The notes beneath the pieces were generated by a model. The model was given only the letters and a program-made list of their open reading frames with translations, ran no database searches and was not told the origin of the DNA. DNA of 14,494 nucleotides, from the NCBI GenBank assembly GCA_043804895.1, contig JAZDIN010000048.1:1-14494 (forward strand), read 5' to 3'. Of the stretch, positions 1,449 through 14,494 are shown one piece after another. Origin of the DNA: Candidatus Altiarchaeota archaeon (GTDB taxonomy: Archaea; Altiarchaeota; Altiarchaeia; IMC4; SCGC-AAA252-I15). The first letter of the stretch is position 1, and each line of letters starts with the position of its first letter. A program made the translations under genes and the position numbers.

Positions 1449-3149
1449 TTAGAGGGGTATTTGTTTCGTCACCCAGATGGTGGTCATGCTTGTGTCTGCT
1501 TGTAGCATGCCGAATTTGAGGTCGTAGTATTCGGCGTTCTCGTAGAAGGTTACTTTGCGGCTTTGTGATTTGCCGTACTGGTCTACGACGCGTATGTTAG
1601 CTCCTGTTGAGCAGTTTATCTCGCGTATGAGGCGTTCCAGTTTCAGCGTGTAAGATTGGTAGTCTACCTCCTCAGTCGCTGTCAGGTTCAGTGTGTCGTA
1701 TTGGTAGGGTATTCTAGCGCATGGTTTGCATGGTCCGCCGCAGTCTATCCTTGCTTCACCCTGGTTTTGTATGCAGTCATGGCAGTTTCCTTGTCCCTCC
1801 CGCCCTTCCATGCAGTCGTCCTGTCCTTCGACGCATATTCTCCCCCAGCCGCATACTTCGAGCACTTCTACTGTTTTTTTGATTGTGCAGTTAGCGGGTG
1901 GCGTGCCGGGGTCCGTGCAGATGTTTCTGGTGCAGTTGGTTGTAGGGTTGGCGGCGACATTGCAGTAAGGGGTTATGCACGAGTCCTTTCCGCAGTCTGT
2001 GTTTGTGTTGCAGAGTGCGTCTGTGTTGTTGCATGGTCTGCATTGTCCGCCGCAGTCCACCTTCTCCTCCCCTTCATCGTAGTCTCTTATCTTGTTTCTG
2101 CAGTATTCCGGGTAGCATTCGCCAAGCCAGCAGTACTCCCAGTCTTCGCATCCTTTAACTAGGCGCGGCTCTATGGCGGTGTATTGGCAGTATGATTGCG
2201 GAGCGCCAGGGTGGATGCACATCTGTCTGATGTCCGGGTTTTTGACGTATTTGCCTTCGCAGAACGGCTTATAGGGTATCTCCTTCTCGCACATGCTGTT
2301 GTTGTAGCATTTGGCTGGCAGAGTGACTACCGTCGTTTCAGTGGTTTGTGTTGAGGAGGTTGTTGTGGAGGTCGTTGTCGCCTCAGTGGTTGCTGTTGTT
2401 ACTGGGGGACACTGGCTCGTATCAGCTGCCCAGCTCCCGTCCCAGCACTGGTATTTGGTTTCAGTTTTCGTGAGCGAAGGCAGAACAGTCGCACCGAGGG
2501 CTGCGACAATTATGATGAGTAGGAGCGGTATTGCGTATCTTAGGGGGGAGGCGCCGCCTGGTTTTTTCGGCCGAGGCTCCTCGAACTCGATTCGCCTGTC
2601 CTCGAGGGGTTCGAGTGAGGCTCGCGGAGTCTTGGTTTTAGGTTTCTCTACAGGCTCTTGGGTTTCCTCTGGTTCCGGAGACTTCGACCAGGATATCTGT
2701 GGTTTGGTAGTTTTGTTGGTTTCCTTCTCAGGCTGTGGTTTGGCTTGTACGGGAGTGGTCGGTTGGTCTATCTTCGGCGGTTGCTCGGGTTTAGGTTTGA
2801 CTGGAATCGTTACGGTCACAGCATGCCTGACGCGTTCCTTCTCTAACTCGGCTTTCAACTCGTCAAACTCTTTTTCATCTTCTTCTGGTTGGGGTTTCGT
2901 TATCGCTTTAGGCTGCGGTGGTTCGGGCTTCTTCATACCCTGGTTTGCCCTCTCCCTCTGAAGTTCAGCCTTTAACTCGTTAAATTCCTTCTCATCATTT
3001 TTTGCTGGCTGCTGCTCTGGAGGCTTGGATTGTGCCTGCGGGGTAGTCGGCGCGATGGGCTTCTTTTTGGCGCGCTCCTTCTCCAACTCAGCCTTAAGGC
3101 CTTCCAACTCCTCATCCAACTCCTCAGAGTCCTCATCAGGTTCAGGCAT
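1449..3149 (-). CDS. Single-pass membrane protein: charged/Pro-rich N-terminus, Thr linker, Cys-rich extracellular region
   Basis: 566-aa ORF. Three LKAEL(E/Q)(K/R)ER coiled-coil repeats, TM YAIPLLLIIIVAALGATVL, poly-Thr linker, two DCGGxCxPC motifs and two 8-Cys modules. Confidence 0.85.
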   Translation of the reverse strand: MPEPDEDSEELDEELEGLKAELEKERAKKKPIAPTTPQAQSKPPEQQPAKNDEKEFNELKAELQRERANQGMKKPEPPQPKAITKPQPEEDEKEFDELKAELEKERVRHAVTVTIPVKPKPEQPPKIDQPTTPVQAKPQPEKETNKTTKPQISWSKSPEPEETQEPVEKPKTKTPRASLEPLEDRRIEFEEPRPKKPGGASPLRYAIPLLLIIIVAALGATVLPSLTKTETKYQCWDGSWAADTSQCPPVTTATTEATTTSTTTSSTQTTETTVVTLPAKCYNNSMCEKEIPYKPFCEGKYVKNPDIRQMCIHPGAPQSYCQYTAIEPRLVKGCEDWEYCWLGECYPEYCRNKIRDYDEGEEKVDCGGQCRPCNNTDALCNTNTDCGKDSCITPYCNVAANPTTNCTRNICTDPGTPPANCTIKKTVEVLEVCGWGRICVEGQDDCMEGREGQGNCHDCIQNQGEARIDCGGPCKPCARIPYQYDTLNLTATEEVDYQSYTLKLERLIREINCSTGANIRVVDQYGKSQSRKVTFYENAEYYDLKFGMLQADTSMTTIWVTKQIPL

Positions 3150-3275
3150 ATGGTAGACATTAAACGAGGAGGGTAAAAAACAGGCTTAAAGAGGCTAAAG
3201 CAGTCTCAGAACCGTTTAGTTAGTTCACGCCGAAACGAATTCAAGTCACATTTGATGTGACGATGCATCTAACAG

Positions 3276-3333
3276 TCAGAGGGACTGAAGCGTCAGCGGA
3301 AGTCCCTCCTTCGTGAACCTTAGTAAGGTTCTA
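3276..3333. repeat. Family A double-hairpin repeat, copy 1 (abuts 3' end of tRNA-Pro)
   Basis: gagggact...agtccctc stem then gaacctt-agt-aaggttc stem; homologous to 4052-4161. Confidence 0.85.
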
Positions 3334-3406
3334 TGGGACCGCTGCGATTTGAACGCAGGTCACCAGCACCCCAAGCTGGGAGGATTCCAAGCTACCCCAC
3401 GGTCCC
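3334..3406 (-). tRNA. tRNA-Pro(GGG), no intron
   Basis: Acceptor GGGACCG/CGGTCCC, anticodon arm CCAGC-TTGGGGT-GCTGG, T arm CTGCG-TTCAAAT-CGCAG, discriminator A; 73 nt. Confidence 0.97.
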
Positions 3407-4004: not shown

Positions 4005-4051
4005 AGTCTAGAATGTGTTTCTGCGAAGAAAAATAAGGGGGATTATCACGC

Positions 4052-4161
4052 TCAGAGGGACTGAGCGAAGCGAACACAACCGACCTTTGGTCGGGTGTGT
4101 GTCCGAGACGAACGTCTCGGCCACATGTCCCTCCTTTCGCGAGCCTTTGATAAAGGCTCTG
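4052..4161. repeat. Family A double-hairpin repeat, copy 2 (abuts 3' end of tRNA-Ala), interrupted by a family B insert
   Basis: tcagagggactgagcgaagcgaa[B]gtccctcc...gagccttt-gat-aaaggctct. Compensatory change gaacc/ggttc to gagcc/ggctc relative to copy 1. Confidence 0.85.
4075..4126. mobile_element. Family B 52-bp double-hairpin insert, copy 1 (putative non-autonomous element)
   Basis: cacaaccgac-ctttg-gtcgggtgtgtgtccgagac-gaac-gtctcggccacat. Second copy at 12182-12234; the empty site is at 3301/3302. Confidence 0.75.
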
Positions 4162-4274
4162 TGGACTCGTCGGGATTCGAACCCGAGGCCCCCACCATTC
4201 TGTCGACTGCGGCCGCCAAACGGCTTGCCGCGCCGTTGCCAAGGTGGTGATCTACCGGACTGATCTACGAGCCC
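4162..4274 (-). tRNA. tRNA-Ala(GGC) with 39-nt intron at 37/38
   Basis: Acceptor GGGCTCG/CGAGTCC with G3.U70, D stem GATC/GATC, anticodon stem CCACC/GGTGG, anticodon GGC at 4240-4238, T arm TCGGG-TTCGAAT-CCCGA; 74 nt spliced. Confidence 0.97.
4198..4236 (-). other. tRNA-Ala intron (39 nt, GC-rich hairpin)
   Basis: ACGGCGCGGCAAGCCGTTTGGCGGCCGCAGTCGACAGAA. Central helix UUGG/ACAG with G.A mismatch; closing helix CGGC/GUCG. Confidence 0.92.
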
Positions 4275-4278
4275 TTTG

Positions 4279-4327
4279 TTCTTTCTTTCCGTGCACGCTT
4301 TCTTTCTTTTTAAGAAAGAAAGGGTGC
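4279..4327. repeat. Family C (CTTT/AAAG hairpin) repeat filling the tRNA-Ser/tRNA-Ala spacer
   Basis: ttctttcttt-ccgtgcacg-ctttctttctt-ttt-aagaaagaaagg-gtgc. Same arms as the Thr/Leu intron element; homologous to 12160-12260. Confidence 0.85.
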
Positions 4328-4429
4328 GCAGGGGTTGGGATTTGAACCCAAGGGGCCTTTTGGGCCACAGACTTTCTGTCGTTTGTGGTTAGCAGGCCTG
4401 CGCGTTGGACCGGACTCTGCCACCCCTGC
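4327..4429 (-). tRNA. tRNA-Ser(GCU) with 16-nt intron at 37/38
   Basis: Acceptor GCAGGGG/CCCCTGC, discriminator G, anticodon stem CAGGC/GTCTG, anticodon GCT at 4393-4391, long variable arm GGCC-CAAAA-GGCC, T arm TTGGG-TTCAAAT-CCCAA; 87 nt spliced. Confidence 0.96.
4374..4389 (-). other. tRNA-Ser intron (16 nt)
   Basis: ACCACAAACGACAGAA; central helix CUGC/ACAG (3 pairs plus C.A mismatch). Confidence 0.9.
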
Positions 4430-4510
4430 TTTGTGTATTCCTCTGTATTCGTCTGTATTCGTAAGAGAAGGGGTGCGTGACATGAAGTGTCGCATACACC
4501 CCTGCTTTGT
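4421..4510. repeat. 14-bp direct repeat duplicating the tRNA-Ser 5' boundary around a 62-bp insert
   Basis: cacccctgctttgt at 4421-4434 and 4497-4510. The insert holds three gtattc units at 10-bp spacing and a hairpin. Confidence 0.8.
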
Positions 4511-11897: not shown

Positions 11898-12159
11898 GTA
11901 GAACAGAAAGGGCGAAAACAGTTTCAGTAAAAGTTGGACTCCATACCAGTTGAATCCGCGGATGTTGACGCTGAACCTCAGAAGGGTGTAAAAACCAGGT
12001 TGACTAACACCAAGACCTCGTACGCCCTGAACCTAAAGCCTCTTAAGCTTATCCATGGCGTGAGTTTATTCAACATGGTAAGCCTTTGTTGGGGAAAAGT
12101 TGTTCAGACATAATGGACCGGCATCCCCTTATCAACCCTACCCTCCTCTCGTTGTAAAC

Positions 12160-12260
12160 TTTTTCTTTTTCGTGCACGTTTCACAACCGACGCTTCGCGT
12201 CGGGTGTGTGTCTGAGACAAAGTCTCAGCCACATTCTTTTTTCTAAAAAGAAAAAGGTGC
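12160..12260. repeat. Family C repeat 3' of tRNA-Leu, interrupted by a family B insert
   Basis: tttttcttttt-cgtgcacg-ttt[B]tcttttt-tct-aaaaagaaaaaggtgc; aligns with 4279-4327 once B is removed. Confidence 0.8.
12182..12234. mobile_element. Family B 53-bp double-hairpin insert, copy 2
   Basis: cacaaccgac-gcttcgc-gtcgggtgtgtgtctgagac-aaa-gtctcagccacat. Differs from copy 1 only at the two hairpin tips and one compensatory pair. Confidence 0.75.
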
Positions 12261-12262
12261 TT

Positions 12263-12431
12263 TGCGGGGGACGAGGTTTGAACTCGCGCAGTCCTTCGAC
12301 ATAGGGTCTCTCAAAACCTACTATTACGCCTCGGAATGTTCTTTCTTTGAACCCGAGGGCCTTTCTTTCTTACGAAGAAAGAAAGGGGCTCTCCTAAGCC
12401 CTACCCATTTGACCAGCTCTGGCACCCCCGC
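12263..12431 (-). tRNA. tRNA-Leu(UAG) with 85-nt intron at 37/38
   Basis: Acceptor GCGGGGG/CCCCCGC, discriminator A, anticodon stem TAGGG/CCCTA, anticodon TAG at 12396-12394, variable arm GTC-GAAG-GAC, T loop TTCAAAC; 84 nt spliced. Confidence 0.97.
12308..12392 (-). other. tRNA-Leu intron (85 nt) carrying a family C element at 12339-12392
   Basis: Full BHB: bulges GG|A and AG|A, helix CUUA/UGAG, closing helix GAGCC/GGUUU. Confidence 0.93.
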
Positions 12432-12713
12432 AAAAGGGAAATTAAGCCTCAAATGGCCGTCTAAGTATAATGAAGTCATGAAATAAATAGGAAACCACAA
12501 GTCGATTCAGGACAATATCACACTTAACCCGCACTTTTTTCGCATGTACCAAGGCACGCCCATTTGACAAGAAGCCGCAGACAGGCGTACAGGAAAATGG
12601 TCTCGATTTGCCCTTTTCAGGCAAATGTCATATATAAGGCATTCAGTTCATAAAAGCCGTCTATATACCTTATAGGGCTTCTAAAAGGCGTTTAATGGCT
12701 TTTGTGTTTTGGA

Positions 12714-12768
12714 AAGTATTATACACTGTGTGTAATACTCGCAAGTATTATACACTGTGTGTAATACT
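12714..12768. repeat. Two tandem identical 26-bp near-palindromes
   Basis: aagtattatacactgtgtgtaatact at 12714-12739 and 12743-12768, separated by cgc. Each has 12-bp arms with one mismatch. Confidence 0.92.
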
Positions 12769-12963
12769 TTACCCTCTGAAATGCCATACCTATTAAAACG
12801 CCTTAAAATAAAAGCTGTAAGCCCTATTTAGCGTTTCTGGATTATCTTCCCCGAATCTATACCCTGAAACCCCTTGAAATCAATCACAGGCCTAGGTTGC
12901 ACCAGCACAAACAAGCGGCTTACAAGAACAAAAGGTGCAATGATATCGCACATGTAGAGGGGG

Positions 12964-14494
12964 CTATTCTGTCTTTGGCTCGCTTATTATCATCTTCTGT
13001 CCGGCCCTGACGTATAGGACGTCTTTGTCTTTGAACCTGTTGAAGAACTTTTCCCCTTCTGATTCTATTTTAGGTATGGAAAGGCCTAGAATGAGTATGT
13101 CTGCGGCTGCTGATTGTTCAGCTATGAGTGCTTCTATGGTTGTTTCCTCTTCGTCATATCTGAGTTCCTGGATTATGTCTTTTGAGAGCGGTATATCTCC
13201 GGATTCTATTAGAGTGGTTAGTTTTTGCAGGTGGTCGTCCATGTGATTTGTGTGGAATGTGGCGAATATTTCAATTGTGGATCCCTTCCATTCTGGATGT
13301 TCATTCAGTATGTATGCTAGAGTAGCCATAAGTCTCGCATTGCGATAGTCCTCAGGGGTAAGCCAGACATGTATCTTTTTTCGATAGCCGAATCGTTTCT
13401 CAGAGGGTTGTAGTATGCAGATATTGAAACTCATCATTGCGGTTAGGCGACAGGCGTCTATAATGTTTTTGGTGCTGTCCTTGTCTTCGGCATCATATTC
13501 GATGAGAAGGCCATTGTTTTCCATCCCAGATATGCCTGGCATCTGTACGATCATCTCTACGGCAGACTTGAATGTGGGCGCTATGATGGTGTCGACATAT
13601 AGGGATGATTTGCTTGACTGTCCGATGTTCACTAAATCCTCCAAATCCTGTTTGGCTGTTCTCTTCGTATCCTGTAGGAGCTCCCCCTTGATGTAGTGGA
13701 TGTATGTCCCAAATCCGTAGTAGTGTGAGAACCATCTTAATAGGTCAAATAATGCAAGGCGCTTGAATGATGTTGATGAGAGGCTGATGAAGGAAGGCCT
13801 CCATCCAGTGAATGATACTTCCATTTGGTGGTGTTGTATCATTACGCGAAGTTTGCGGGTTAGCTGGAAGAATGCTCCTGAGACCATGTCTGAGAGGTCG
13901 TATTCGTTGGATCTGCTTTGCTTGATACTGACATATATGCCTCCTATAGCCAGCAGGGACAGTGATGCATAGAGGGGAGACATCTGAAACATCATGAAGA
14001 GACATATGAGGGCTCCTGATAAGGAGAGATACCATTTTGTCCTGAACGTTGGTTGGTAGGATAGGTTTCCTGCGAAATGCTGCAAAAAGCTAACAAGGCA
14101 TACGGCGCCGTATGTTATCATGAAGAACATGCTGATTATCTGCGCTACGAAATCGACGGTGCCTATGAATACGAAGAATAATGCTATTATAGCAGTCACA
14201 AATGTTGCATTTGACGGTTCATTCGCTTCCCCGATTCCCTTGCTCAAGTAGTGGTTCAGCGTCTTTGATGGAAAAATCCTATCCTTGGCTAATGCCTGCA
14301 TAGTGCGTGGCGCTATGAGGAGGGAGCCAATTGCGGAAGACAGTGTTGCGCACGCCAGACCGATGAGGATGAGCGGGCCCCACAATGCAATCTTGCCCAT
14401 GATTAGCTGGTCAGCTGCTAAATCCTCAGGTGACGCTGAAAGGGAAAGTTTTATCACAACAAGGAAGTATACAACCATTCCAACTAAGGTAGCG
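12964..14494 (-). CDS. APC-superfamily permease of the cation-chloride cotransporter (SLC12A-like) type, C-terminal part (5' end outside window)
   Basis: ATLSSAIGSLLIAPRTMQALAKD, AQIISMFFMITYG, SYQPTFR, GWRP, IVQMPGISGMENN, IHVW and a long cytoplasmic C-domain. Frame is open to the window edge. Confidence 0.9.
   Translation of the reverse strand, partial: ATLVGMVVYFLVVIKLSLSASPEDLAADQLIMGKIALWGPLILIGLACATLSSAIGSLLIAPRTMQALAKDRIFPSKTLNHYLSKGIGEANEPSNATFVTAIIALFFVFIGTVDFVAQIISMFFMITYGAVCLVSFLQHFAGNLSYQPTFRTKWYLSLSGALICLFMMFQMSPLYASLSLLAIGGIYVSIKQSRSNEYDLSDMVSGAFFQLTRKLRVMIQHHQMEVSFTGWRPSFISLSSTSFKRLALFDLLRWFSHYYGFGTYIHYIKGELLQDTKRTAKQDLEDLVNIGQSSKSSLYVDTIIAPTFKSAVEMIVQMPGISGMENNGLLIEYDAEDKDSTKNIIDACRLTAMMSFNICILQPSEKRFGYRKKIHVWLTPEDYRNARLMATLAYILNEHPEWKGSTIEIFATFHTNHMDDHLQKLTTLIESGDIPLSKDIIQELRYDEEETTIEALIAEQSAAADILILGLSIPKIESEGEKFFNRFKDKDVLYVRAGQKMIISEPKTE

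Follow-up and report, generated by a model that had tools for sequence, protein, structure and literature searches.

Structured repeat families in the intron and trailer of an Altiarchaeota tRNA-Leu(TAG) gene and at other stable-RNA genes

Several described systems touch on the origin of archaeal tRNA introns. In Thermoproteales, nearly alike introns occur in tRNA genes of different identity (Fujishima et al. 2010, via PMC4090602); according to that review, these introns are placed at sites able to form a bulge-helix-bulge, and their gain is thought to happen at the DNA level, the transposition mechanism being given as unknown. In Caldiarchaeum, according to Sugahara et al. 2012 (PMC3293823), a tRNA gene is disrupted by a 1.8-kb insert encoding a recombinase. 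A 2026 preprint on tRNA introns in Asgard archaea states that 'how they arrive remains open'.

Here we describe a window of 14,494 nt (the whole stretch of DNA analyzed) from a Candidatus Altiarchaeota assembly (GCA_043804895.1, 1.58 Mb, 88.7% complete; "the assembly" below), whose tRNA introns contain sequence traceable to named repeat modules (families A, B and C). As in Thermoproteales, introns of different tRNAs, here Thr(TGT) and Leu(TAG), share 96% identity over 54 nt, above the >70% criterion. Unlike the introns covered by PMC4090602, these belong to another phylum, and their common part is a defined structured module rather than the whole intron; this module also occurs in leaders and trailers, downstream of 5S and RNase P RNA genes and once in a coding start, the modules are nested, and the flank copies have stubs of gene ends. 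The likeness to Caldiarchaeum (PMC3293823) is a 5' tRNA fragment upstream of an intact copy, and intron gain that would be tied to recombination at the gene, but the inserts here are 60-200 nt long and non-coding, and no recombinase was found in the assembly.

The families also resemble bacterial REP/BIME-RAYT repeats and IS200/IS605-derived elements in being short imperfect hairpins, often paired, non-coding, multicopy and lacking a fixed target duplication, family B being the closest to the REP/BIME type. They differ in that the Y1 domain (PF01797) has no match in the assembly or in four genomes of the same genus, and in that A and C keep to stable-RNA genes and have a single orientation there (exceptions are given below). 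MITEs are recognized by a target-site duplication of fixed length and a related autonomous element with a transposase, whereas here the flanking duplicates vary from 9 to 57 nt, are absent from intron copies, and Y1, TnpB, reverse transcriptase, integrase and resolvase models gave no match in the assembly. Compared with integrase att remnants, direct repeats of the tRNA 3' part are present, but the inserts are 65-200 nt long and gene-free, and the assembly yielded no integrase. As in H-DNA motifs, a purine-tract mirror repeat of family C stands beside its own pyrimidine complement, but here the pyrimidine, purine and mirrored purine tracts all lie on one strand and form a dispersed repeat family. 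The 3' end of MALAT1 forms an RNA triple helix beside a tRNA-like processing site; family C has one U-rich and two A-rich strands, the opposite composition.

Among the matches listed, judged by titles and abstract openings, our literature search found no publication on such repeats or on tRNA introns in Altiarchaeota (supplements could list intron families), and nothing related on mirror repeats or triplexes at archaeal tRNAs. Judged from sequence, the apparently new features are the mirror, triplex-type layout of C, GAGCC as a putative splice helix, duplicates of gene ends, and the turnover of introns and C subtypes. Copies of these modules also occur outside genes and inside one another, one strand of the splice motif is contained in them, and their insertions appear to leave stubs of gene ends.

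Repeat copies at tRNA genes of the window

The tRNA-Leu(TAG) gene occupies positions 12263-12431 of the minus strand and contains an 85-nt bulge-helix-bulge intron. It was missed by the default ARAGORN run and by Rfam, and is reported by ARAGORN with introns allowed (-i) as tRNA-Leu(tag) c[12262,12432], i(41,85). Exon 1 (12393-12431, tRNA positions 1-37) is defined by this prediction, the splice-motif geometry and orthologues in relatives; the intron (12308-12392), whose splicing is predicted, is at the canonical position 37/38 by the same prediction and geometry; exon 2 (12263-12307, from ARAGORN -i) ends with the discriminator A, CCA not being encoded. Intronless Leu(TAG) orthologues align with this gene exon to exon. 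The bulge-helix-bulge reads TAGGG / CTTA / GGA / GAGCC ... GGTTT / TGAG / AGA / CCCTA, comprising the anticodon stem (TAGGG/CCCTA), the central helix CTTA/TGAG with 4/4 pairs, the 3-nt bulges GGA and AGA, and the 5-bp intron-side helix GAGCC/GGTTT, where GAGCC are the first bases of a family C copy.

This copy forms the first 54 nt of the intron (12339-12392, minus strand; covariance model R1 match 12328-12396). It shares 96% identity with positions 1221-1274, inside the tRNA-Thr(TGT) intron, and 61% with positions 4276-4329, which lie between tRNA-Ser and tRNA-Ala (family D2). The GAGCC head is followed by a hairpin of pyrimidine arm, loop and purine arm (12360-12388), a short second hairpin GCCCTCGGGTTC and a purine tail AAAGAAAGAA (12339-12348).

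The trailer (12159-12262) is a C copy of a third type, beginning 1 nt past the tRNA 3' end and split by a 52-nt B double hairpin. Its left part (12234-12262, minus strand) consists of AAGCACC and the hairpin CCTTTTTCTTTTT-AG-AAAAAAGAA, and its right part (12159-12181, minus strand) of the second hairpin AAACGTGCACG and the purine tail AAAAAGAAAAAG. Between them, where the purine arm ends on its 3' side, lies the inserted B, TGTGG-CTGAGAC/GTCTCAG-ACACACACCCGACG/CGTCGGTTGTG, on the minus strand at about 12182-12233 (counted by hand), which is a clean indel relative to B-free C copies and matches positions 4075-4125 in the tRNA-Ala trailer (D16/D19). Positions 12103-12147 (minus strand), read from the sequence and from relatives, hold a decayed copy of a further conserved module (GGGTAGGGTTGATAAGGG...); in relatives and on contig C25 of the assembly (114380-114440), this module precedes a repeated 3' end of the host tRNA. 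The earlier note had described C in the intron, C in the trailer and B within the latter at 12160-12431, exactly the anatomy observed.

The other tRNA genes of the window are also on the minus strand. tRNA-Thr(TGT) (1159-1312; ARAGORN -i and covariance models) has an 80-nt intron (1195-1274) with a C copy at 1221-1274, and an A-like module in its leader (1343-1403). tRNA-Pro(GGG) (3334-3406) is directly followed by a B-free family A copy (3268-3333), the whole unit spanning 3268-3406. Further, tRNA-Ala(GGC) with its intron (4162-4274) precedes a family A copy (4040-4161), the unit spanning 4040-4274, and within this A copy the second hairpin has B (4075-4125) as an insert in its loop. A C copy fills the 52-nt spacer (4275-4326) between this gene and tRNA-Ser (4327-4429), whose leader contains a 67-nt insert (4430-4496) with a 9-nt copy of the tRNA-Ser 5' end upstream of it (4497-4505). 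In total there are four C, two B and two to three A copies, and, as claimed earlier, all of them are in or adjoin five tRNA genes, on the tRNA strand; the claim that the window encodes no mobilizing enzyme is likewise correct. No Rfam family matches A, B or C (E up to 0.1; the window and 10 other loci).

Structure and distribution of the families

Family C is a pyrimidine/purine hairpin with a purine tail that mirrors the purine arm. In 59 of the 76 distinct copies, the tail agrees more closely with the mirrored purine arm of that copy than with a direct repeat of it (2 opposite, 15 ties), and the score with the own partner is 830 against 616 +/- 18 for shuffled partners, with 0 of 5000 shuffles reaching 830, in a control that leaves common descent within subfamilies uncorrected. 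Spacers are mostly 7 or 11-13 nt. Family C has the sequence features of an H-DNA motif, a homopurine-homopyrimidine tract, mirror symmetry and a short spacer, and the layout would be of triplex type (H-DNA or intramolecular triplex); such a design would be an unusual natural dispersed motif of triplex type. Since the tail mirrors the purine arm, it is a poor pairing partner for the pyrimidine arm in any asymmetric tract. An alternative-hairpin switch was considered for the tail and rejected, as the tail is a mirror and not a direct repeat (59 vs 2). Purine-motif triplexes are poorly formed by RNA strands, which makes a triplex in the sense transcript of C doubtful. A role of C as terminator was also considered, as flank copies of the assembly have T-runs of 5 or more, seemingly absent (by eye) from intron copies, and was dropped, since intron copies in relatives carry T-runs of 4-6 (29 loci).

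Family A is a two-hairpin unit with compensatory changes in 9 of 13 pairs; it fits the geometry of neither a kink-turn nor a C/D-box (tried by hand). Family B is a double hairpin with conserved mismatches in both stems. It appears as a clean 52-56-nt indel at a single site in four C copies, that is, in the Leu(TAG) trailer and three others, one of them in another genus; within A it occupies the loop of the second hairpin in either orientation.

The data support A, B and C as genuine families of structured repeats, with a strong concentration at stable-RNA genes, those for tRNAs included. In the whole assembly, 16 of 17 A copies and 18 of 20 C copies lie in or at most 300 nt from a stable-RNA gene, which bears out the enrichment expected in the earlier note. 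Its confinement to tRNA genes holds for B only in part: this family is enriched (8 of 15 copies within 300 nt of a stable-RNA gene), but 7 of 15 copies are far from any, and B is a general intergenic repeat, not a tRNA-specific one. The baseline is 12.4% of non-coding bases, with binomial tails of 5e-14 (A), 8e-15 (C) and 2e-4 (B), on a gene list in which two tRNA-Arg pieces of one gene (contigs C17 and C20) were recognized while inspecting element loci, and another gene is counted twice through the overlap of contigs C33 and C47. A single C copy is found at the 5' end of a protein gene, whose start is interrupted in two genomes.

The statement that each family keeps one orientation is true of the window but not of the genome, where, of 19 C copies linked to RNA genes, 15 share the direction of the gene. 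Two of the four reversed C records of the assembly follow 5S rRNA; the other two are in the tRNA-Arg(TCT) intron pieces of C17 and C20, perhaps a single locus. The A copy behind RNase P RNA is reversed, and B occurs both ways round inside A. In relatives, 33 of 36 C hairpins (29 loci) are inside an ARAGORN tRNA or at most 300 nt away from one (16 introns, 10 trailers, 7 leaders), and all 32 orientable ones point with the tRNA.

The repeat families are found across all seven families of the order. C is present in 44 of its 49 genomes, with 0 to 59 model matches per genome and none in five, and copies in other genera are 96-98% identical, compared with ~70% for protein genes of the same genera. 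Generic repeats lacking tRNA enrichment, or fixed and vertically inherited ones, had been named beforehand as findings that would speak against selfish elements at tRNA genes. Part of the latter is the case: the families are order-wide, with C in 44/49 genomes, and the position of the Leu(TAG) intron is old. In viral contigs the C pattern found one AT-rich low-complexity stretch only, without a tRNA, and the B pattern found no match.

Introns, gene-end stubs and candidate enzymes

The proposal that the modules serve as intron material agrees with 8 of 17 ARAGORN-predicted introns of the assembly holding a C copy; besides Leu(TAG) and Thr(TGT), C is found in Phe, Asn, Ser, Met, Gln-like and Thr(GGT) introns. 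A strict bulge-helix-bulge at 37/38 is present in 11 of the 18 intron-bearing tRNA candidates and absent from the other 7. Five of seven C-bearing introns tested fit the strict motif, the first 3-5 nt of C forming the intron-side helix. The mature tRNAs are intact, in line with the initial description, and the introns carry a proper predicted bulge-helix-bulge motif. The splicing endonuclease EndA is represented in the assembly by one gene (PF01974 match in a 184-aa frame).

Intron presence and content also vary among close relatives. The orthologous Leu(TAG) introns are 0 (relatives G001 and G003), 25, 50, 71, 82, 82, 85, 97 and 146 nt long, and the C subtype in them varies among genomes; the intron position itself is old, being common to several families of the order. 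Thr(TGT) has no intron in any of three other genomes examined, and the intron in the assembly resembles that of Thr(GGT) over its entire length. With the Leu(TAG) intron it has only the first 53-54 nt in common, the 27-32 nt at the 3' side being tRNA-specific and containing the exon-pairing bases. No case of presence in one strain and absence in another was seen; the compared genomes are of different species, whose intergenic DNA is too diverged for empty sites to show.

Flanking copies are accompanied by partial duplicates of the host gene end. In 12 of 29 RNA genes, 10 nt or more of the gene's 5' or 3' end recur without mismatch in the flank (reversed control fragments, 0), and the pattern recurs in relatives, including one tandem doubling. 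The duplications are 9 to 57 nt long, and intron copies lack them. The 3' stubs run from the T-loop or T-stem to the discriminator, a span which we take to be the classic sublocation of integrase sites; they are 16-17 nt long for Val and Ile, 14 nt exact (~21 with mismatches) for Leu(GAG), and 18 nt exact (~23 with mismatches) for RNase P RNA. The stub of the protein gene differs from the gene in 7 of 13 codons synonymously in the assembly and in 8 of 19 in G003, with no non-synonymous differences, which points to recombination with a diverged allele. A retro-copy origin of the stubs was rejected, as complete tRNA copies before stubs have no encoded CCA, and RVT_1 has no match. The stub-linked hairpin behind tRNA-Val and tRNA-Ile was tried by hand as a bulge-helix-bulge, and its geometry does not fit.

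The suggested safe haven in sequence removed by processing agrees with the copies in introns and trailers but not with leader copies, which are mostly upstream of the likely promoter, behind a gene stub. These copies, together with the one in a protein gene, argue that such sequence is not the sole home of the repeats.

The search for an enzyme of the kinds proposed in the earlier note gave no Y1 and no reverse transcriptase in the assembly: Y1, TnpB, RVT_1, Phage_integrase, Phage_integr_3 and Resolvase, the six families covered, have 0 matches there, in an assembly that is 88.7% complete and in which the universal Xer-type recombinase is missed as well. Y1 (PF01797) is found in 13 of 40 relatives, with no visible tie to C copy number. 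In the relative G020, a distance of 1.6 kb separates a Y1 gene from a C+B copy; the gene was discarded as a candidate, as its flanks have no B hairpin.

Possible origins of the repeats

We consider it moderately probable that the three families are structured repeats of a non-autonomous kind, which spread among stable-RNA genes, recombine there and provide sequence for introns. The non-mature parts of tRNA-Leu(TAG) would then be assembled from three short non-autonomous families specific to the Altiarchaeota order. C would be a single-strand fold-back in which a 5' GAGCC-type head is followed by paired pyrimidine and purine arms, a very small second hairpin and the mirrored purine tail; B would insert into loops of A and C; and A and C copies would be exchanged among stable-RNA genes by recombination at the DNA level rather than by retro-copying. 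Such copies would survive at three kinds of sites. In the anticodon loop at 37/38, the GAGCC head would pair with a downstream GGYUY to form the intron-side helix, completing the bulge-helix-bulge, so that the splicing endonuclease might remove the insert. Directly past the mature 3' end is a second such place, and the third would be upstream of a gene, with a duplicated gene-end stub and one intact gene copy left. Some observations count against mobile repeats. Conservation across the order, near-identity between genera, the strict junction with tRNA ends and the near-uniform orientation are also expected of a host-selected RNA or DNA signal; moreover, none of the transposase and recombinase families searched had a match in the assembly, and the stubs are variable in length.

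It is possible, but rather unlikely, that A and C are host-selected signals of stable-RNA genes rather than selfish DNA, acting in end formation, folding, protection or turnover of precursor pieces, or as small RNAs released by RNase Z and EndA cuts. Their likeness would be kept by gene conversion, and stubs would be by-products of recombination between dispersed copies. Consistent with this, the 32/32 orientation with the tRNA in relatives and the persistence in all seven families go together with a C or A 5' end that in every case adjoins a tRNA-derived end (at the 5' splice site, 1-11 nt past the 3' end, or at a stub), and the mirror covariation of C and compensatory pairs of A argue for selection on structure; nested inserts are in loops only, and the assembly revealed no mobilizing enzyme. 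However, the copy number ranges from 0 to 59 matches per genome, with none in 5/49, and the same tRNA may have the module in one species and not in a congener, which suggests that the module is dispensable. A signal is also hard to reconcile with the reversed copies (behind 5S rRNA, in the tRNA-Arg(TCT) intron, behind RNase P RNA), the copy that breaks a protein-gene start in two genomes, the leader copies seemingly outside the transcript, the lack of an Rfam family match, and the failure in relatives of the trend of T-runs of 5 or more in flank copies only, seen in the assembly. Much less probable are units that are att-type scars of integrase-bearing plasmids or viruses targeting tRNA genes, not self-moving repeats. 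This idea draws on the 3' stubs spanning the T-loop or T-stem to the discriminator, and on Caldiarchaeum, where Sugahara et al. 2012 (PMC3293823) link the integration of a recombinase-bearing element to a new intron and a 5' tRNA fragment. Yet the DNA between the repeats is just ~65-200 nt and gene-free, intron copies lack any stub, and no tyrosine or serine recombinase was matched in the assembly; moreover, stubs from genes as different as those for tRNAs, 5S, RNase P RNA and a glycosidase-like protein flank the same A or C unit, which argues against the product of one integrase with one att core.

Returning to mobile, recombining repeats, a bolder form, which we hold to be unlikely, would make C an intron-seeding recombination module: it would fold into a triple helix, an undescribed enzyme would join its GAGCC head to exposed sites of stable-RNA genes, and segments would be swapped between genes and lineages. 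Because the splice helix has this head as one of its strands, a copy arriving at 37/38 would be a spliceable intron from the outset; if true, this would give the gain of archaeal tRNA introns a concrete route.

On the practical side, A/B/C repeats break assemblies and conceal tRNA genes from standard finders, and the default ARAGORN run recovered only one of the five tRNA genes of the window.

The tRNA-Leu(TAG) locus and the repeat families of the genome

The window is one entire contig (C48) of a 1.58-Mb bin comprised of 71 contigs and 88.7% complete. With introns allowed, ARAGORN predicts five tRNA genes in it, all on the minus strand: tRNA-Thr(TGT) (1159-1312, 80-nt intron), tRNA-Pro(GGG) (3334-3406), tRNA-Ala(GGC) (4161-4274), tRNA-Ser (4326-4429) and tRNA-Leu(TAG) (12262-12432, 85-nt intron). 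At default settings tRNA-Pro is the only one detected, and Rfam detects three, tRNA-Leu not being among them. In the minus-strand reading tRNA-Leu consists of exon 1 (12431-12393), the intron (12392-12308) and exon 2 (12307-12263).

The intron starts with a 54-nt unit of family C (GAGCC CC-TTTCTTTCTT-CGT-AAGAAAGAAAGG-CCCTCGGGTTC-AAAGAAAGAA), which shares 96% identity with the beginning of the Thr(TGT) intron and 61% with the 52-nt spacer separating tRNA-Ser from tRNA-Ala. A third version of C begins one base past the 3' end of tRNA-Leu, and this trailer copy is split by a 52-nt double hairpin (family B), whose relative is located in the tRNA-Ala trailer. The intron unit, the trailer copy and the nested double hairpin bear out the anatomy of the locus described in the earlier note. 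Upstream, between the region preceding tRNA-Leu and the end of a permease-like ORF (12964-14478), there are two exact 26-nt direct copies spaced by 29 nt (12713-12770), which jointly form a 27-nt inverted repeat (89% complementary) and do not belong to families A, B or C.

Searched with a covariance model based on 27 copies, the genome under study yields 19 copies of C, and the B-split trailer copy of tRNA-Leu, missed by the model, brings the total to 20. Ten of them lie within tRNA introns, further eight at most 300 nt from a tRNA or 5S rRNA gene, one 315 nt behind a 5S rRNA gene, and one at the start of a protein gene. Family A is made up of a pair of hairpins with GCGAAGG as the joining and CTGAACG as the closing sequence, and 9 of 13 base pairs show compensatory changes; 16 of its 17 copies have a gene for tRNA, 5S rRNA or RNase P RNA no more than 300 nt away, and the last one adjoins an RNA-like sequence on contig C52. 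Family B has about 15 copies, eight near RNA genes (most nested within A or C) and seven in ordinary spacers distant from RNA genes, within two other repeated contexts. Since a mere 12.4% of non-coding bases are within 300 nt of a stable-RNA gene, the enrichment is strong (binomial tails 5e-14 for A, 8e-15 for C and 2e-4 for B), the underlying gene list including two pieces of one tRNA gene recognised during inspection of the element loci and one gene counted twice, as contigs C33 and C47 overlap.

Eight of the 17 introns predicted by ARAGORN in this genome carry a C copy. Contigs end in or beside the repeats and overlap each other there (C33:23515-23654 with C47:21200-21411; C17:25040-25140 with C20:55760-55841); thus the repeats break the assembly, and tRNA genes are located at contig ends. 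The tRNA-Arg(TCT) gene is split across the ends of C17 and C20, its intron being composed of an A copy with a nested insert and a reversed C. Only 26 tRNA genes have been found in the genome. An intron-bearing gene labelled tRNA-Stop(tta) by ARAGORN (C56:7622-7785) probably represents tRNA-Gln, the intron call being offset, as its exons match the intronless tRNA-Gln(TTG) of a relative (G023, L071). On contig C52 (29880-30000, L004), the A copy lies between 24-nt direct repeats of the start of a GC-rich non-coding sequence, which has no Rfam family match at E up to 0.1 and may be an unrecognised structured RNA gene.

In the aligned C copies (two B-free and four B-bearing), B stands out as a clean block of 52-56 nt located where the purine arm ends on its 3' side, at a site identical across two C subtypes and in another genus (G020). 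In A, the B insert occupies the loop of the second hairpin, forward behind tRNA-Ala and reverse behind 5S rRNA and tRNA-Gly. All aligned B cases involve either the junction of the purine arm and linker or a hairpin loop of the host unit. Other double hairpins, similar in architecture and different in sequence, are carried by C copies in other genomes and also occur, in the genome under study, behind tRNA-Leu(GAG).

Mirror symmetry of C and its part in the splice motif

On the sense strand, C is read as a pyrimidine arm, a purine arm and a purine tail, the tail being the mirror image of the purine arm, not its direct repeat. Of the 76 distinct arm/tail pairs compared (29 genomes), 59 fit the mirror better and two the direct repeat, the 15 ties being caused by symmetric tracts. 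Examples of asymmetric pairs are the arm AAGAAAAGAGAAAAA with the tail GAAAAAGAGAAAA and the arm GGGAAGAAAGAAAAA with the tail GAAAAAGAAAGAA. The summed score of tails against the mirrors of their own arms is 830, compared to 616 +/- 18 for shuffled pairs (reached in none of 5000 shuffles), this control leaving the shared descent of subfamilies in. The spacer between arm and tail is a tiny hairpin, mostly of 7 or 11-13 nt. To our knowledge, no duplication process generates mirror symmetry, and in purine/pyrimidine tracts its known structural reason is triple-helix (H-DNA-type) formation. Judging by the order of the tracts, the sense strand would form a putative purine-motif triplex, and the complementary strand a classical pyrimidine-motif one.

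The splice motif at 37/38 was searched for under strict criteria, which required a 5-bp anticodon stem, a helix of 4 bp in which three or more pairs form, bulges of 3 nt on the two opposite strands, and 3 bp or more in the inner helix. It is present in 11 of 18 intron-bearing tRNA candidates, including Leu(TAG) (TAGGG / CTTA / GGA / GAGCC ... GGTTT / TGAG / AGA / CCCTA) and Thr(TGT) (ACCGA / CTTG / TAA / GAGCC ... GGTTC / AAAG / CAA / TCGGT). Five of the seven C-bearing introns tested have the strict motif, and in all five the inner helix is formed by the first 3-5 bases of C. The partner strand of this helix and the bases pairing with the anticodon loop are located in the 27-32-nt tRNA-specific 3' part of the intron; therefore, C supplies one strand of the motif, and the remainder must suit the host. 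The genome has one EndA gene, with a 184-aa frame. A search for RNA data sets covering the locus found none.

Distribution and turnover of C across the order

Matches to the C model occur in 44 of the 49 genomes of the order and in each of its seven families, numbering 0 to 59 per genome (matches on both strands of one hairpin included). In the relatives, sampled as 29 loci centred on the best matches from other genomes, 33 of 36 C hairpins are in or at most 300 nt from a tRNA predicted by ARAGORN (16 in introns, 10 in trailers and 7 in leaders), and all 32 orientable ones share the direction of the tRNA. In the genome under study, the same direction is observed for 15 of 19 C copies linked to RNA genes. 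Two of the four reversed records are behind 5S rRNA, and the other two, in the intron pieces of tRNA-Arg(TCT), may be one locus.

The tRNA-Leu(TAG) intron is old, being shared by several genera and also by a second family of the order. Its length varies (25, 50, 71, 82, 82, 85, 97 and 146 nt, and 0 in G001 and G003), as does the C subtype it carries: GCCCTCGGGTTC in the genome under study, the CGTTCRCGG type in the congener G002 and the relatives G005 and G014, and GTGCTTCATCCC in G027. The first of these subtypes is also present in both Thr introns and the Ile trailer of the genome under study. Of the four genomes examined for Thr(TGT), the genome under study is the only one with an intron, the gene being intronless in G001, G002 and another record, and two of these three intronless genes carry a stub, i.e. 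a partial duplicate of the gene end, followed by C in the leader. Apart from B, the Thr(TGT) intron resembles that of Thr(GGT) along the whole length, and another genus also has a Thr(GGT) intron with C, a pattern compatible with an intron copied between the two Thr genes. The composition of the introns and the Thr(TGT) case support the suggestion of the earlier note that the elements may be a source of new tRNA introns or lengthen existing ones. Different genera have C copies with 96-98% identity, the protein genes of these genera being about 70% identical at the DNA level.

Gene-end stubs and the origin of the repeats

Flanking copies of the repeats are often accompanied by a partial second copy of the end of the host gene. 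Such stubs, defined as exact copies, 10 nt or longer, of sequence from the terminal 30 nt of the gene (either end) inside the 400-nt flank, are found at 12 of 29 RNA genes and at none with reversed control fragments. Six cases are 5' (e.g. Phe with 14 nt, or 26 counting the leader; Ile with 17; Ser with 16 and 13) and seven are 3' (e.g. 17 nt in Val(GAC) and Val(TAC), 16 in Ile, 14 in Leu(GAG), 18 in RNase P RNA, 11 in 5S rRNA), tRNA-Ile having both. Arg(GCG) and tRNA-Ser of the window (9 nt, 4497-4505) have stubs that are shorter or contain mismatches. The upstream order is stub, A or C, spacer and gene, and the downstream one is gene, insert, stub and A or C; these layouts are also seen in relatives (Thr, Asn, Ile, Pro, Gly). 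Stub and C are doubled in tandem in two relatives (L070, G009:C55:13320-13560; L071, G023:C3), the 110-nt unit consisting of a 25-nt 5' stub of tRNA-Gly and a C copy, and in G023 the duplicated segment also holds a leader module of about 50 nt (GGGTTGATAAGGGG...). Complete tRNA copies have no encoded CCA, which is evidence against retro-copies, and this origin of the stubs was rejected.

The most informative case is a protein gene with a similar arrangement. At C32:2922-3070 (L006/L090), a gene of 415 aa with the N-terminus MTSICLYFQVHQPYRL holds a C unit behind codon 13; codons 1-13 are present on both sides of the unit, seven of them differing, all synonymously. In the congener G003, a different C subtype follows codon 19 of the same gene, with eight codons differing, again all synonymously, and the allele types are swapped, so that stub and gene copy resemble each other crosswise between the two genomes. 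No insert is present at this site in the other genomes examined (two further congeners, four genomes from other genera). A decaying stub is expected to gain non-synonymous changes; thus stub and gene probably go back to two functional alleles, joined by recombination at the C unit.

These observations are best fitted by non-autonomous structured repeats that, at the level of DNA, spread and are exchanged between genes for stable RNAs. The repeats would survive where the gene product is unharmed: in a spliceable intron at 37/38, directly behind the 3' end, or upstream with a stub leaving an intact gene. The earlier proposal that processed sequence is a safe haven is reasonable for intron and trailer copies and does not cover those in leaders and at the coding start. 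Selection of A and C by the host as a signal is a possible, though less probable, explanation, since it would account equally well for the long-term conservation of the units, their fixed orientation, the exactness of the junctions and the covariation in structure.

As for a mobilising enzyme, no matches to Y1 transposase have been found in the genome under study or four congeners (it is present in 13 of 40 relatives), and none to TnpB, reverse transcriptase, tyrosine integrase (two models) or resolvase in the genome under study, where the searches covered these families in an 88.7% complete bin. That the units are pure integrase scars is the least likely explanation, and we consider it improbable. 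In Caldiarchaeum, a tRNA fragment together with the gain of an intron has been linked to an integrating element (PMC3293823), and for Thermoproteales similar introns in different tRNA genes are described, the mechanism being unknown (PMC4090602). The literature search found nothing on tRNA introns of Altiarchaeota or mirror-repeat modules at tRNA genes. New here are the mirror-repeat (triplex-type) design of C, its contribution of one strand to the splice motif, the census of C and its orientation across the order, the quantified stubs, including the synonymous-only coding one, and the negative enzyme searches.

Several further features were noted. An insert of about 69 nt is found behind two tRNA-Val genes and tRNA-Ile (C15:31454-31540, C47:21195-21264, C33:5054-5135) and behind tRNA-Ala in G001 (L025); it comprises a stretch complementary to the 3' end of its own tRNA, a hairpin and a 16-nt copy of this 3' end, and could fold into an acceptor/T-arm-like minihelix. 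In the window, all on the minus strand, a 566-aa ORF (1449-3149) belongs to no Pfam family, its relatives having been found solely in two other uncultured archaeal records, and the insert before tRNA-Ser (4440-4470) contains three tandem 9-10-nt units similar to GAATACAGA. An exact copy of positions 19-28 of tRNA-Leu (10 nt), surrounded by loose similarity, lies 127 nt upstream of the gene (12545-12575) and may be a decayed 5' stub or a chance match.
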